Below, piece by piece: positions 14,074 to 43,757 of a stretch of DNA of 43,757 bases. The DNA lies in the sequence record MT682706.1; one strand, written 5' to 3'. The notes beneath the pieces were generated by a model. It saw only the letters and a program-made list of their open reading frames with translations. It did not search any database and was not told the DNA's origin. The DNA comes from Escherichia phage vB_EcoS_FP. Made by a program: the position numbers and the translations under genes. Positions within the stretch are counted from its first letter, which is position 1; every line of letters begins with the position of its first letter.

Positions 14074-14098
14074 AAACCCTCTTCGGAGGGTTTTTTAT
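14074..14098 (+). terminator. intrinsic terminator
   Basis: AACCCTCTTCGGAGGGTTTTTTATT. Confidence 0.75.
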
Positions 14099-14100
14099 TG

Positions 14101-14160
14101 CACAGCACTTTTTGATAAAGCACTTATTCAGTTTTGCTGTATAGTTAACTCATCGAAACG
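14101..14160 (+). promoter_or_regulatory. phage-specific promoter-like module (variant)
   Basis: CAGCACTTTTTGATAAA, 22 nt, TATAGTTAACTCATCGAAACGA. Confidence 0.5.
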
Positions 14161-14780: not shown

Positions 14781-15100
14781 AGAGGGCGGTGTATCTACAG
14801 TACCAGTCAGAGCCAACTGATGCCGAACTGGAAGCTATTGGGATGCGCCGCTCTGATTACGAAGACGAAGAGCCTGAAGTTTTACACTTCGACGACAACA
14901 TGATGAAGGCTTGGGACATTTATTGTTCAATGGCCACGCAATGGAGGGTTGGAGCTAACGGAGCTACAGGGTTAGATTACAACGTGCTAAATTTCCTCTT
15001 TAGAGTGTATAATGTCTCAGAAGAAGAATTGGTGCTCAGTGATTTACGCATCCTTGAAGCTAAGGCTCTCGAGATGATGGATAATCTGAGAAAAAAATAA
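14466..15100 (+). CDS. tail assembly chaperone GT-like fusion via programmed -1 frameshift at A_AAA_AAC (14771-14777)
   Basis: Slippery heptamer in frame with the G codons; -1 frame continues as ...KKLKRAVYLQYQSEPTD into ORF ending 15100. Confidence 0.55.
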
Positions 15101-15120
15101 CCCGCTTCGGCGGGTTTTCT
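15100..15120 (+). terminator. intrinsic terminator-like hairpin
   Basis: ACCCGCTTCGGCGGGTTTT. Confidence 0.45.
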
Positions 15121-15135
15121 ATTATGGAGGCTTAG

Positions 15136-18114
15136 ATGGCAACAAATGAATTAGCCGGAATCACACTAGCCGTAGACGTCTCGCAGGTAGACAGGGGAAC
15201 GCAATCCCTACAAAAGTTCAGGCAGGCAAACCAGCAGGCTGCTTCCGGTATTAGTGAGTTCGTCAACGCTGAACAGGTCGCTAAAAACCAGGCTAGAGAT
15301 ACCGCTCGCGCACTGGCTGAACAGCAAGCATCTTTAGCTAAATTGCAAACAGCTATTGATCCAACTGCGGCAAAGTTCCGAAAGCTGCAAGAGGCTGCTG
15401 TAGGTCTTGACAAGGCTTTCGCGGCTGGAGTAGTTCCTGATGAGGAGTTTTTCCGCTTAGGTGAAGCCCTTGAAACGCAGAGCGCAAAACTTGCTCGTTC
15501 ACGTGCGGCGCTAACTGAAGAGGGAAGGGCGGCAGCTCAAGCCGCAAAGGATAAGGCAAAGGCAAAGGCTGAAGCTGATAGGTTCATTGCGTCACTTGAG
15601 CGACAGGCTCAAGCGGCAACATTGACGCGTGAGGAGTACTTAAAATTACAGGCTGCCCAGCTTGGGGTGAGCTCTCAGGCAGCACCTATTATTGACAGAA
15701 TCGCCGATGCATCACAGAAGGCAAACACCCAGCTAATTGCTCAGAGTAAGGCTTTTCAGAAATCAGGATTAAGCGCAGGTCAATACAAGAACGCAATTTC
15801 TCAGCTGCCAGCGCAGATTACTGATATTGGCACGTCTCTTGCTGGCGGCATTCCGATTTGGCTTATTGCAATTCAGCAGGGTGGGCAGATCAAGGATGCA
15901 TTTGGCGGTATTGGTAACACCTTTAGATTCGCGCTTGCTGCTTTAAACCCATTCAACGTAGCAGTTGGGGTTCTCGGTGGCGCTCTTATTGCTTTAGGTG
16001 TCGGTGCAGCTCAGGCTGAAAGTGAATTCAGAGCATTAAACTCTGCCATTGCATTCTCCAACAACTCCACAATCGCATCAATCTCGCAGGTTAGAGATTT
16101 GGTTAGCTCCGTTTCTGATGCTACTGGTGCAACCAGAGGACTTGTGACTAGCATCGCAACAAGCCTTATTGAGCAAGGGAACCTTACGCTGACGCAGATT
16201 GACAAGATTACCAAATCAACCGCCAGATGGGCGCAGTTGACAGGTAAGGATGCGAAGGAGATTACTGGTTACTATAACCAGATTGCGAGCGACCCAATTC
16301 AAGGACTTGCTGATTTAGACAAGAGGTTTAACTTCCTTACACAGGGGCAGTTAACAACAATTGAAAGATTGAGAGAGACTAGGGGTGAGGTTGAAGCTGT
16401 TACCGCCGCGATTGATATTTTCAGCAAGTCACAGGAAGCTAACCTTAACGACATAGCTGCGCAGTTAACCCCACTTGAGTTGGCCTGGAATGATTTTAGA
16501 AAGTACATCTCTGATATCTGGGATGCAATTAGTCGTAGAACGGTTGGGGCGCTGAACTTGTTTGTTGACGTAATAGCAGGAACAATTGAGCAAATCAGGG
16601 TCTTCCTTAACAGCGGTGACGTGCTGATTGGTGAATTCGTAATTAGCTCAATTCAGGCGTTGCAGAACATACCTGGTCTTGATGGTGTCGGTGATGACGT
16701 TATCAAGGCTCAGCGTGAGATTATCGATGCAGCTAAGAAGAATAACCTTGAACTAGAAAAGTCTATCAGGGAGCGAGACGCTAGAATAAGAAAAGGAGAA
16801 ATGGGTTACGTTACTAGCAGAGAAAATCAGAATACCAATGAGCAGCCAGGCACGGATGAGGAGTTTGCAAAGAGGAAGAAGGCGCTTCAGGATGAGCTTG
16901 ACGCGATTAAGAAGAACAGGAAAGAGGAAAATGGGAGGGTTAAGGAGCAAAGGGATTTAACAATAGGTTATGAATCTGGCGTTCTGGCACTTCAGGCTCA
17001 ACTCAAAGTTCTTCAGGAAAACAGGGATATTGGCGCAGTAATAAGCAACGAGCGCAAGCAGTACCTTCAGGAGGAAGCAAATTTCAGGATTCTTGAGCAG
17101 AGGCAAATTGATGGATCAATAACCAAAGAGCAGGGCAGGCTTCTTATTGAGAAAGATAAGGTTCTTCAACTGGCCAGACAGAAGGCCGAATTGGGTGACC
17201 AGATTGTTTTGCAGGAACGAGCCAATAAGTTGGCTGAAGTTAACCGCAAAAAGATTCTTCAGATTAACAATGAAGCGAGTAACATTGACTTGGGTGCTGG
17301 GTTATCATCTCGTGAGCAGCAAAGAGCTAAGGAGATTCAGGCTCTTAAGTCCAATCAGGTCAATGCTGGTGGCTCTCTTGATGATGTTGATTTTCAGCGG
17401 TTGCTGGAAGCAAGAAAGGAATACTACAAGCAGGAGGATAATCTTAGGTCAGACTGGCAATCAGGTGTAACATCCACTCTCGCCGACTTGACAGAGAAAT
17501 ATACAGACTACAATCAGATAGCTAAGGATTTAACCGTTGCGGCATTCGACGGGATCACAGAGCAAATCACCAACCTTGTAACCACTGGTGAGACCAATTT
17601 TAGGGAGTTCACATCAAACATCCTCAAAATGATTGCGAAGATTGCAACTCAGTTACTTTTGGTTAAGGCCATCGAATCAACATTGACTAGCTTTGGTGGT
17701 GGTGGAGGTAATGCGTTTGGCTCTTTTGCGTCTGCTATAGGTTTCTCCGGTGGCGGTTACACTGGTGACGGCGGTAAGTACCAGCCAGCAGGCACTGTGC
17801 ACCGTGGTGAGTTTGTATTCACAAAAGAAGCTACAAGCCGAATCGGTGTGAAAAACCTTTACGCGCTAATGAAGGGGTATGCAAACGGCGGCGCTGTAGG
17901 TGGTCCATCTGGTTATGCAAATGGCGGCTTGGTTTCTGGTGGTGCGGATGTTAATGTTAGCGGCATCACCGTTAACGTGAGCTCTGGTGTTGGTAGCGAC
18001 CCAGAGCAAGCTAAGGCGCTGCAAAGCGGAGTCAAGGCTATCGTAGCGGAAGAGATTGCGCAGTCTTTCCAGCAGGGCGGCAGGGCGTATCAGTACCTGC
18101 GCGGATTCAACTAA
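15136..18114 (+). CDS. tail tape measure protein
   Basis: 992 aa; coiled-coil-rich N-terminal half; Gly-rich C-terminal region; position. Confidence 0.9.
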   Translation: MATNELAGITLAVDVSQVDRGTQSLQKFRQANQQAASGISEFVNAEQVAKNQARDTARALAEQQASLAKLQTAIDPTAAKFRKLQEAAVGLDKAFAAGVVPDEEFFRLGEALETQSAKLARSRAALTEEGRAAAQAAKDKAKAKAEADRFIASLERQAQAATLTREEYLKLQAAQLGVSSQAAPIIDRIADASQKANTQLIAQSKAFQKSGLSAGQYKNAISQLPAQITDIGTSLAGGIPIWLIAIQQGGQIKDAFGGIGNTFRFALAALNPFNVAVGVLGGALIALGVGAAQAESEFRALNSAIAFSNNSTIASISQVRDLVSSVSDATGATRGLVTSIATSLIEQGNLTLTQIDKITKSTARWAQLTGKDAKEITGYYNQIASDPIQGLADLDKRFNFLTQGQLTTIERLRETRGEVEAVTAAIDIFSKSQEANLNDIAAQLTPLELAWNDFRKYISDIWDAISRRTVGALNLFVDVIAGTIEQIRVFLNSGDVLIGEFVISSIQALQNIPGLDGVGDDVIKAQREIIDAAKKNNLELEKSIRERDARIRKGEMGYVTSRENQNTNEQPGTDEEFAKRKKALQDELDAIKKNRKEENGRVKEQRDLTIGYESGVLALQAQLKVLQENRDIGAVISNERKQYLQEEANFRILEQRQIDGSITKEQGRLLIEKDKVLQLARQKAELGDQIVLQERANKLAEVNRKKILQINNEASNIDLGAGLSSREQQRAKEIQALKSNQVNAGGSLDDVDFQRLLEARKEYYKQEDNLRSDWQSGVTSTLADLTEKYTDYNQIAKDLTVAAFDGITEQITNLVTTGETNFREFTSNILKMIAKIATQLLLVKAIESTLTSFGGGGGNAFGSFASAIGFSGGGYTGDGGKYQPAGTVHRGEFVFTKEATSRIGVKNLYALMKGYANGGAVGGPSGYANGGLVSGGADVNVSGITVNVSSGVGSDPEQAKALQSGVKAIVAEEIAQSFQQGGRAYQYLRGFN

Positions 18115-31525: not shown

Positions 31526-31591
31526 TGTGTAAAGTCTCCATTTGTAAAATAGCACTAATTGCTAAGTTGGATTGTAGCATCTTTCAGGCAT

Positions 31592-42449: not shown

Positions 42450-42496
42450 ATTATATCAACGACCGCTTATAATTCATTATCAATTTGTGCTATTTA
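42450..42496 (-). promoter_or_regulatory. phage-specific promoter-like module (minus strand) for ATPase gene
   Basis: Minus strand: AAATAGCACAAATTGATAA, 22 nt, TATAAT, with the -10 overlapping the first in-frame ATG at 42451. Confidence 0.5.
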
Positions 42497-42847
42497 CAGG
42501 TATTGAGCCTCGAAGTGGTAGTCCCCACAAACTGTAACAAAGCCAACATCTTCGTCACGATATAGCTGCCATGCGCTACCCTCCTTATCGTAAATGTATC
42601 CAGCGCGCTGCCCAAGTCCAGCATGGAGATCTACTTGATATCGCTTCCCTTCAGTGAAGTACTTACGAATGGATGAGCGATGATTAACCTTTGTGCAGTA
42701 AATGGTCTTTGTCTTGATGTACTTACCGCGCTCCTCCAGGTTAACCCATTTCCCATCTTTCTTGATTTGTTCTACACCATCTTTAACGCGAGCTTTGTAT
42801 AGTACGTTTTCGTTGCTAATCCAGTTTTTGGTAGTCGTAGTAGTCAT
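42494..42847 (-). CDS. hypothetical protein (117 aa)
   Basis: ATG 42847 with RBS AAGGGTAAAAG; own promoter module. Confidence 0.55.
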   Translation of the reverse strand: MTTTTTKNWISNENVLYKARVKDGVEQIKKDGKWVNLEERGKYIKTKTIYCTKVNHRSSIRKYFTEGKRYQVDLHAGLGQRAGYIYDKEGSAWQLYRDEDVGFVTVCGDYHFEAQYL

Positions 42848-42869
42848 TTCTTTTACCCTTCGTTGTTTC

Positions 42870-42930
42870 GTTTCGATGAGATTAATATACATGAAAAGCC
42901 CCGAAGGGCTTTAGCAATTCGTGCTATTGC
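42870..42930 (-). promoter_or_regulatory. phage-specific promoter-like module (minus strand) containing a terminator-like hairpin in its spacer
   Basis: Minus strand: AATAGCACGAATTGCTAAAGCCCTTCGGGGCTTTTCATG-TATATTAATCTCATCGAAACGAAAC. Confidence 0.55.
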
Positions 42931-43072
42931 GTGCCTTTTCTATCGCCTTAAGCATGATTTCGTGACTTTCCAGTAAGTCCTCTCGGAACCAATCTCCGCA
43001 AGGCCATCCCTTACCGCTGTATGCGCTTACGACCTCAAGGTCGAAATAATTTATCTCAGATGGCAGGAGCAT
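42911..43072 (-). CDS. small hypothetical protein (53 aa)
   Basis: Own translation: MLLPSEINYFDLEVVSAYSGKGWPCGDWFREDLLESHEIMLKAIEKARNSTNC; ATGA overlap with upstream gene. Confidence 0.4.
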   Translation of the reverse strand: MLLPSEINYFDLEVVSAYSGKGWPCGDWFREDLLESHEIMLKAIEKARNSTNC

Positions 43073-43269
43073 CAGTAGTCCTCCTCATCTTCTTGTTCAA
43101 AGTCCCACACAATGTATTCGCCCAATCTTTGAATCTCAGCGCCAGAAAGAAAGACACCTAAAGCGAACGATCTGTCTTCATCAGTCTTAAAATACTCCAA
43201 AGGGTATCGTTCGTAAAATTTATTAATTAAATGTGCAATGTCAAACTTATCTGATTGCTTAATCATCAC
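43072..43269 (-). CDS. acidic small early protein (65 aa)
   Basis: ORF track; acidic C-terminus FEQEDEEDY. Confidence 0.5.
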   Translation of the reverse strand: MMIKQSDKFDIAHLINKFYERYPLEYFKTDEDRSFALGVFLSGAEIQRLGEYIVWDFEQEDEEDY

Positions 43270-43699: not shown

Positions 43700-43757
43700 A
43701 TCCCCTCGTTTTTGATGAGCTAACTATAGCCTCGCCAGACAAACATGTCTTTAGCAA
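43700..43757 (-). promoter_or_regulatory. phage-specific promoter-like module (minus strand), truncated by window end and completed by bases 1-20
   Basis: Minus strand: TTGCTAAAG, 23 nt, TATAGTTAGCTCATCAAAAACGAGGGG; upstream half GGCACTTTT is the reverse complement of window positions 1-17. Confidence 0.5.

Follow-up and report, generated by a model that had tools for sequence, protein, structure and literature searches.

The window analysed here is a stretch of 43,757 nucleotides (nt) from Escherichia phage vB_EcoS_FP (MT682706.1), a Drexlerviridae coliphage near Msk/OzMSK, Veterinaerplatzvirus and Rtp (Rtp/T1-like). On its minus strand a small GC hairpin with a UUCG loop lies between a 21-nt direct repeat and a −10-like hexamer, at the junction of two genes. 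We read the site, with moderate confidence, as a T1-like gene-junction cassette, in which the hairpin would partly terminate the upstream RNA and host RNA polymerase would restart at about 42877. We observed how the site is built, that its module recurs with a fixed geometry, that structure is enriched, that the element is conserved and that breakpoints fall on the module; promoter activity and termination are what we infer from the sequence. The hairpin is one instance of a structured slot found across the family, which mostly holds hairpins that are not terminator-like.

Anatomy of the site

Direct reading of the minus strand (42,847–43,072) gives the order AATAGCACGAA-TTGCTA-AAGCCCTTCGGGGCTTTTCATG-TATATT-AATCTCATCGAAACGAAACAACGAAGGGTAAAAGAA-ATG, with the following features.

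42911..43072, minus strand: upstream gene of 53 amino acids (aa), PHROG 4548 (function unknown), full-length match, E = 1.3e-30
42909..42929, minus strand: 21-nt T1-like direct repeat caATAGCACGAATTGCTAAAG, whose TAGCA and TGCTA halves form a dyad; includes the TTGCTAA of the first-pass annotation
42912..42917, minus strand: TTGCTA hexamer, 22 nt 5′ of the −10-like hexamer, predicted −40 to −35
42911..42913, minus strand: TAA stop of the 53-aa gene, which lies in the repeat and overlaps the stem base
42895..42912, minus strand: hairpin A-AAGCCC-UUCG-GGGCUU-U, with GC core 42909–42898 and cUUCGg tetraloop 42905–42902
42911–42906 and 42901–42896, minus strand: stem arms AAGCCC and GGGCTT, followed by TTCATG (direct reading)
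42890..42897, minus strand: TTTTCATG, the tail that follows the GC core: short U-run, presumed release zone, tail score 4.43
42884..42889, minus strand: −10-like hexamer TATATT (A2 and T6)
42877, minus strand: predicted transcription start A, with C before it, 7 nt past the hexamer, from the C−1/A+1 conservation of the family
42861..42878, minus strand: conserved A-rich leader CATCGAAACGAAACAACG, to which breakpoints of insertions in relatives map
42856..42860, minus strand: Shine-Dalgarno (SD) sequence AAGGG, 8 nt 5′ of the ATG (direct reading)
42494..42847, minus strand: downstream gene of 117 aa, PHROG 2684, ATG 42847–42845, residues 1–117 matched, E = 8e-50

The first-pass annotation, made from the letters alone, had placed a GC hairpin with a UUCG loop and a T-tract in a 22-nt spacer between TTGCTAA and TATATT. 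The hairpin is confirmed at 42911–42896, is present in both the minimum free energy (MFE) and the centroid folds, and has a possible seventh A-T pair (42912/42895). A T-run does follow, but it consists of just four T (42897–42894), two or three of which pair with As of the stem. The spacer is 22 nt long when counted from TTGCTA; from TTGCTAA the gap is 21 nt, one A having been counted twice, which is why a literal search for TTGCTAA-N22-TATATT misses the site itself. That search (≤3 mismatches) returned 23 matches with 21.8 expected and was set aside as uninformative.

The 17-nt core of the repeat is matched exactly in this copy (42929–42909), and the distance from the start of the repeat to ATG 42847 is 82 nt. 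The hexamer TATATT (42889–42884) is TATAAT-like by its A2 and T6, and the TG of this copy stands at −14/−13, the family-typical register being −15/−14.

The longest open reading frame (ORF) over the downstream gene (42494–42892, minus strand, 132 aa) begins at an ATG (42892) that falls within the promoter spacer, and this long form is annotated in the GenBank record of BEK6. The true start is almost certainly ATG 42847, as judged from the SD sequence AAGGG and the PHROG 2684 match over residues 1–117. The Rtp counterpart of the gene, rtp69, is annotated as 'similar to gp07 of phage T1'.

The module in the window

The repeat has been described in phage TLS, where it has the consensus aaATAGCACnnnTTGnTAAAA and occurs as a 21-nt direct repeat in 21 copies, and it was also noted there for T1, Rtp and Rogue1 (Kropinski and co-workers 2024, PMC11447400). 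This re-annotation leaves the function of the repeat open (stoperator, enhancer-binding site or UP element), gives just three sigma-70-like promoters, and places terminators directly against two copies (T62 at DR12 and T57 at DR10).

A search of the window with ATAGCACGAATTGCTAA (≤3 mismatches) found 12 matches, against 0.14 expected, and the leader was matched 7 times, against 1.37 expected. Alignment of the TTGCTA-N22-TATAGT copies gave a shared unit consisting of aaATAGCACgaaTTGCTAAa, 22 nt, TATAGT, TAcCcCATCGAAACGAAA, SD and ATG. Besides the site itself (−42917), TTGCTA-N22-TATAGT/TATAAT/TATATT occurs at +1714, 2225, 3160, 27800, 35606 and 39033, and a cut copy at 43757 has N23 instead of N22. 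With one mismatch allowed, the spacing is exactly 22 nt in 11 of the 13 matches. The window holds about 14 copies of the module, each of them co-directional with the next gene.

Several other places in the window bear on the module. The repeat copy at 31549–31565 (plus strand) has no −10-like hexamer at 22 nt; it adjoins a canonical minus-strand terminator (31614–31597) and sits between two minus-strand genes, in the opposite orientation to them. At 14074–14118 (plus strand), a canonical terminator, AAACCCTCTTCGGAGGGTTT-TTTATTG, passes straight into a degenerate repeat, ACAGCACTTTTTGATAA, so that the terminator here stands before the module and not inside it. The hairpin AACCCGCTTCGGCGGGTT at 15099–15138 (plus strand), followed by TTCTATTATGGAGG, is of the type of the spacer-embedded terminators found elsewhere (e.g. 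locus L018); it has no repeat upstream, and a TATTAT abuts the SD sequence of the 992-aa gene that starts at 15136. A transfer RNA (tRNA) gene (4244–4318, plus strand, 55 bits) lies among the closely spaced modules 1704, 2215, 3150 and 5318, and it was the only known RNA family returned by an Rfam scan of the window. Among the neighbouring early genes, no candidate for a repeat-binding protein emerged: no Pfam domains were found, and their PHROGs are of unknown function.

Promoter features across the family

Repeat-bearing contigs were collected from IMG/VR (>120 collected, about 120 in all), and these contain 392 distinct copies of the repeat. In 277 of the 392, TTGnTA is followed at exactly 22 nt by the best −10-like hexamer, and the next commonest distances account for 18, 17 and 11 copies, which bears out the fixed spacer length on which the first-pass annotation had built. 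Conservation over 336 modules is 80% for G−14, 39% for TG at −15/−14, 66% for T−17, 77% for T−12 and 86% for T−10, and at the start site 77% for C−1 and 88% for A+1; A2 and T6 of the hexamer are forced by the selection filter, and T1, T3, G−14 and C−1/A+1 are unforced. The hexamer is followed by the ATG after about 30–35 nt.

These conserved positions point to an extended −10 sigma-70 promoter with a predicted start 7 nt past the hexamer. Extended −10 promoters need no −35 contact, and a distance of 22 nt, impossible for a −35 box, would be tolerated for this reason. The earlier view of the site as a promoter module holds in that the hairpin lies between two conserved elements, but TTGCTA is half of the known 21-nt repeat and not a sigma-70 −35 box. 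The accompanying claim that geometry rather than sequence is conserved describes positions −30 to −18, which carry <0.35 bit, and the fixed distance; it does not extend to AAAc at −34 to −31, T−17 and G−14, which are conserved. Canonical sigma-70 −35/−10 pairs occur in the window at or below chance (25 vs a shuffled expectation of 32.0; 24 vs 39.8 ± 6.4; 15 vs 11.2), and intrinsic-terminator-like sites are about twice as frequent as expected (34 vs 17.5; 22 vs 14.2; 9 vs 4.0). Twenty modules have no co-directional upstream ORF and head units of their own.

The repeat also marks the end of the upstream gene. Two of its reading frames contain a stop codon, TAG within ATAGCAC and TAA within TTGnTAA; among 316 modules the former ends the upstream gene in 183 and the latter, as at this site, in 41, and in a further arrangement the stop lies 2–3 nt 5′ of the repeat (56/316). 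In total the stop is in or adjoining the repeat in 280 of the 316. The unit is therefore a complete junction, comprising stop, gap, −10 hexamer, leader, SD and ATG.

Other types of signal were considered and rejected. A sigma-70 promoter with TTGCTA as its −35 box would have a spacing of 22 nt, and no −35-like hexamer is present at 16–18 nt (AAAGCC at 17). Compared with a sigma-54 promoter (TGGCAC-N5-TTGCW), TAGCAC-N3-TTGCT has AG for GG and is 2 nt too short, and the start site that it would imply shows no conservation. The repeat differs from the A/T-tract consensus of an UP element, the distance to the −10 hexamer is wrong for a T4 MotA box (TGCTT), and the spacer has no conserved dyad of the kind expected of a MerR-type long-spacer promoter.

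Terminator likeness of the hairpin

The 22-nt spacer alone folds with −8.9 kcal/mol, and no other copy in the window is as stable. The energy of the hairpin ranges from −8.8 to −9.7 kcal/mol, for a stem of 6–7 base pairs (bp) with 4 G-C pairs and a cUUCGg loop; the 81-nt region around it is not unusually stable (z = −0.75). A terminator index in the style of d'Aubenton-Carafa, with ViennaRNA energies and calibration in this window only, is −2.3 for the full stem and +14.3 for the GC core plus UUUUCAUG. The 16 canonical terminators of the window have indices of −3.5 to +62 and tail scores of 2.7–6.1, none of 3000 random segments exceeds an index of 0, and the other foldable spacers in the window (1704, 3150 and 35596) range from −26 to −48. 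The hairpin scores at the weak end of the canonical terminators of the window.

The stem stands directly on the TAA of the co-directional 53-aa ORF, the position expected of an intrinsic terminator, and in AHP42 the same module carries an identical hairpin, for which the annotation gives a TransTermHP terminator. The hairpin shares with the intrinsic terminators of E. coli and phages a GC stem, a UUCG tetraloop, an A-run matching the U-run and the place after a stop codon; with 4 G-C pairs and 4 Us, however, it is weaker than nearly all of the 16 canonical terminators of this genome. The U-rich stretch expected of an intrinsic terminator spans about 7–9 nt immediately past the stem.

A second pairing is available to the same RNA. 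The 5′ arm and loop, GCCCTTCG (42909–42902), can pair with CGAAGGGT (42862–42855) over the SD sequence of the next gene, and this alternative is the MFE structure of the 60-nt region (−15.3 kcal/mol). Since it was found in the window and BEK6 only, it is probably due to chance.

A structured slot across the family

Spacers with a folding energy at or below −8 kcal/mol make up 21.8% of 326 modules, compared to 1.7% of shuffles and 1.3% of random 22-mers, and the foldable spacers comprise 39 distinct 5′ arms. Among 52 tetraloops there are 24 GNRA and 12 UNCG loops (about 5% expected), with 0 antisense equivalents. The sense strand is the more stable in 215 modules and the antisense strand in 103; G.U pair counts are equal on both strands. 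A terminator-like hairpin (index >0) is present in 46 of 336 modules (14%), compared to 0.9% of random windows.

Structure accompanies upstream genes. A spacer hairpin is present in 33% of the modules preceded by a co-directional ORF and in 0/20 of those without, and in a 46-nt fold the proportions are 66% and 20%, the group without an upstream co-directional gene being small (n = 20). The enrichment, the tetraloops, the strand bias and this link to upstream genes point to selection for structure in the RNA.

The hairpins fall into three classes by position. In class A, which comprises about 7–24 distinct modules and includes the site described here, the hairpin lies within the spacer and has its own T-run. 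Class B, with about 80 modules, has a GC hairpin ending 0–3 nt into the −10 hexamer. In class C, with about 130 modules, the spacer (arm at about −25 to −19) pairs with the discriminator (arm at −6 to −1), leaving the −10 hexamer in the loop; the 3′ end peaks at −1, and no U-tract follows. Examples in the window are +2215, +27790, +5318, −42493 and −32608, and there are many more among loci L002–L121. The class C pairing covaries over 96 distinct discriminator hexamers: spacers pair with their own downstream arm at −10.7 kcal/mol and with the arms of other modules at −5.9 kcal/mol, and the exact complement of −5 to −1 is found in 75 of 181 own spacers compared to 27 of 871 cross-comparisons. 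An apparent tendency of spacer hairpins to end flush at position 22 (82%) was discounted as partly an artefact of truncation, as wider folds run 0–3 nt into the hexamer and also reveal the large class ending at −1.

The hairpin does not reach beyond −1 of the predicted promoter in its cassette. Taken together, the results indicate that it forms in RNA coming from upstream and would be absent from transcripts begun at the module's own promoter.

Orthologues and module breakpoints

Orthologues of the site were drawn from GenBank relatives, and a scan of IMG/VR with the 5′ arm gave 4 loci only. The spacer AGCCCTTCGGGGCTT is unchanged in AHP42, Rogue1, JK06, Sadiya, P817, PH1062, ESCO41, Sd1, CY1 and two IMG contigs, which represent at least 5 genera and have differing genes on both sides. 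In BEK6 a C-to-T change keeps the pairing as a G.U wobble, and in 2725-N35 the closing pair is altered on both sides with the UNCG loop kept and another pair lost. In Rtp and 12397V the spacer is unrelated and forms another hairpin. Past the stem, six bases vary among the orthologues (TTCATG, TTATTG, TTCCTG, ATGCTG and others), natural variants of the site being TTTTATTG in AHP42 and TTATGCTG in Sd1, and the terminator index ranges from −7.5 to +23. Pair counting over the orthologues gave 94.9% of cells paired, with 1 compensatory pair, 1 wobble and 5 unpaired cells.

Comparison of homology blocks between the window and 18 relatives showed that breaks fall on the module. Eight relatives (OzMSK, 2725-N35, AHP42, Rogue1, e4/1c, SU57, CY1 and Rtp) have insertions of 180–340 nt in the leader, and in ESCO41, Sd1, PH1062 and GH-K3 the similarity starts exactly at the first base of the repeat. 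In SU57 (locus L122, 1018–1085), the orthologous module is followed by an extra 192-nt gene and then by a partial module, which consists of an ARNold-annotated hairpin and TATATAGAAACGAAAC, and lacks the repeat; the arrangement resembles a scar left when a cassette was inserted through recombination within the leader. The 65-aa ORF at 43072–43269 (minus strand, PHROG 27229) is present in OzMSK and missing from most relatives, and its breakpoints, near 43263 and 43088, lie away from any module.

Proposed mechanism and alternative explanations

We propose that the cassette is ordered as the 21-nt repeat, usually with the upstream stop, the 22-nt slot, an extended −10 hexamer, a start 7 nt on, the A-rich leader, SD and ATG, and that the slot, alone or together with the discriminator, would normally encode an RNA hairpin. 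Polymerase coming from five small upstream early genes would transcribe both repeat and hairpin, and part of it would release in the U-run at about 42897–42886; for these five genes the hairpin would most likely be an intrinsic terminator or attenuator of weak to moderate strength. About 15–20 nt downstream, host RNA polymerase would use the cassette's predicted extended −10-type promoter to begin a new transcript near A 42877, and expression of the 117-aa gene and the DUF3987 helicase-like gene downstream would be independent of upstream traffic. As all early promoters in the window carry the repeat, it would have to be acted on by the host enzyme or else by a factor that is injected or made very early. 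The first-pass suggestion that the element terminates and re-initiates transcription within about 30 bp is consistent with the terminator likeness of the hairpin and with the predicted end (about 42894–42888) and start (42877), which are no more than about 15 nt apart. Termination would nevertheless be partial at best, because the U-tract is weak and varies among orthologues and the stem is degraded in OzMSK.

A broader possibility, which we advance tentatively, is that the 22-nt gap is a dedicated structure slot in the promoter set of the Drexlerviridae, with the form of the structure setting the insulation cassette by cassette, and with the repeat (centred near −42) read by a factor or an unusual polymerase contact. 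Nearly every junction between cassettes would then hold a covarying RNA hairpin, which at this site would be a true terminator and elsewhere either a GC hairpin that abuts the −10 hexamer or a stem enclosing it. Since the hairpin ends at or before −1, read-through transcripts and those initiated at the promoter would differ by the hairpin, and the fixed non-canonical distance would call for some factor or an unusual RNA polymerase contact to read the repeat.

Several observations weigh against partial termination followed by restart at this site. The U-tract is short (UUUUCAUG) and its first Us are paired with As of the stem, the hairpin was not flagged by a simple terminator scan of the window, and a literature search for transcript-end data on T1-like phages found none. 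Given that the stop codon overlaps the stem and given the known footprint of the ribosome, a ribosome that terminates there would sit over the 5′ arm, which could impede folding. TG is missing from −15/−14 in this copy. Among the orthologues, Sd1, Sadiya and L063 have UU only (index −2) and BEK6 has an index of −7.5; the stems of SU57 and of OzMSK, the closest relative, are degraded, and the distance in OzMSK is 23 nt, so the hairpin is dispensable. Covariation in this hairpin is not significant, as variation is little and 56 of 500 shuffles do as well; with one compensatory change, the hairpin is therefore backed by conservation and not by covariation. Across the family most module hairpins lack a U-tract, and termination is for this reason not the general role of the slot. 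The module statistics pool related phages, which overstates independence.

We regard it as unlikely that the hairpin serves instead as a 3′-end protector or processing barrier, with read-through RNA cut in the leader and the upstream mRNA shielded from 3′ exonucleases. This would be a common role for all module hairpins, and termination would be a side effect where a U-run happens to follow. The scarcity of U-tracts (46 of 336 modules score >0) would be accounted for, as would the enrichment of stable RNA tetraloops, the association of hairpins with upstream co-directional genes, and the largest hairpin class, which ends exactly at −1 and is followed by AUCGAAACGAAA. RNase E prefers single-stranded A-rich sequence, which is the kind of sequence found in the conserved leader, although the leader is also explained by translation initiation. 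At this copy, however, a U-run comes right after the GC core, and the index is within the range of the real terminators of the window. It is improbable that the inverted repeat acts as DNA, either as a cruciform or palindrome tuning the promoter (e.g. through supercoiling) or as a recombination hot spot, with the RNA hairpin incidental. The homology breakpoints on the module fit this explanation, as do the crossovers mapped in or beside the stem-loop of the promoter-early stem-loop (PeSL) cassettes of T4-type phages, the many modules that hold the −10 hexamer in the loop of a covarying inverted repeat, and the equal G.U counts on both strands. The loops, however, are strand-specific (36 GNRA/UNCG sense, 0 antisense equivalents) and the sense strand is the more stable; hairpins are depleted where upstream transcription is absent, and most breakpoints map to the leader or to the repeat's edge rather than to this stem. 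A stem of 6–7 bp with a 4-nt loop also extrudes poorly as a cruciform.

That the hairpin is a neutral passenger, an allele of an unconstrained spacer spread by descent and cassette exchange, is very improbable. The lack of significant covariation, the decay of the stem in SU57 and OzMSK without obvious consequence and the unrelated spacer of Rtp and 12397V would be expected of a passenger, and the orthologues could share one recent origin; however, spacer hairpins are enriched roughly 13–17-fold with 39 distinct stems, the stem is invariant over genera that are ~70% identical in the flanking DNA while the 6 nt after it vary, and the replacement alleles in Rtp and 12397V carry a hairpin too. 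Least probable of these explanations is that the module is not a promoter at all, the repeat being a stoperator-like or other protein-binding or processing signal, the TATAGT-like hexamer a coincidence, and re-initiation absent. The 22-nt distance is incompatible with a standard −35/−10 pair, the TG of this copy is out of register, and the TLS authors allowed for a stoperator, an enhancer-binding site or an UP element. The variation of the hexamer nevertheless fits a sigma-70 −10 element (unforced T1 77%, T3 86%, G−14 80%, C−1/A+1), orientation and distance to the ATG are constant, modules head units that have no upstream gene, and promoters are otherwise in deficit. T1-like phages are virulent, and no repressor is known in them.

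Comparison with known systems

Two parts of this picture are already known, the 21-nt repeat itself (PMC11447400) and this hairpin as a terminator annotation in AHP42. The fixed link between repeat and −10 hexamer, the hairpins nested in the gap, the stop-codon role of the repeat and the covarying stem enclosing the −10 hexamer were not found described in the literature searched, the genome papers of T1 and Rtp excepted; Niu et al. 2014 gives counts of terminators and promoters only. The element in TLS is the same and has the same orientation, about 76–82 nt from start codons, but the accessible text of the TLS paper is without the fixed 22-nt link, the structured slot and the stop-codon role seen here (PMC11447400).

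The single hairpin is ordinary; the architecture behind it links the repeat, over 22 nt, with an extended −10 hexamer and with a predicted start and leader, and so supplies the family as a whole with a promoter map that is concrete and open to testing. The terminator-like hairpin is the clearest case of the RNA-hairpin slot in this architecture. T1-like phages are common laboratory and industrial contaminants and phage-therapy candidates, and their promoters are essentially unmapped. Compact terminator–promoter units would also be useful parts for synthetic biology.

The family shares with extended −10 (TGn/TRTGn) promoters T−17, G−14, a TATAAT-like hexamer and C−1/A+1, with no −35 box at 17 ± 1 nt; that class does not include an upstream repeat of specific sequence at a set distance, as is present here. 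The stoperators of mycobacteriophage L5 are likewise many oriented intergenic copies of a short repeat. They are, however, repressor sites of a temperate phage without a fixed link to a −10 hexamer, whereas T1-like phages are virulent and carry the repeat in phase with promoter-like signals.

The closest parallel is the PeSL cassettes of T4-type phages (Arbiol et al. 2010, PMC2839356; Comeau et al. 2014, PMC4122927). Their stem-loop is most often between the −35 and −10 elements or overlaps the −10, lacZ fusions showed that the stem-loops terminate and the PeSLs promote transcription, crossover points were mapped to the stem-loop or its immediate surroundings, and PeSLs mediate modular gene shuffling (PMC2839356, PMC4122927). 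Both systems have a repeated intergenic cassette running from the upstream stop to SD and ATG, a host-type promoter (predicted here), and a stem-loop inside or overlapping it; the position classes of the hairpins are parallel, and both kinds of cassette mark junctions of gene shuffling. In every respect that could be compared, the T1-like module appears to work like a PeSL. The PeSLs differ in having consensus −35/−10 elements at normal spacing and an AT-rich upstream region, whereas here there is no usable −35 and a specific 21-nt repeat lies 22 nt upstream; PeSL stems are polyG/polyC, whereas the stems of the T1-like module favour GNRA/UNCG tetraloops; and the PeSLs belong to the T4-type myovirus family, whereas the present phages are Rtp-like Drexlerviridae of unrelated sequence. 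With unrelated phages, no usable −35 and a specific repeat at a fixed non-canonical distance, the T1-like module stands outside the PeSL family. Its hairpin slot and breakpoints would extend the PeSL idea, that self-contained cassettes with their own stop, insulator and promoter shuffle genes between phages, from T4-like myoviruses to an unrelated siphovirus family.

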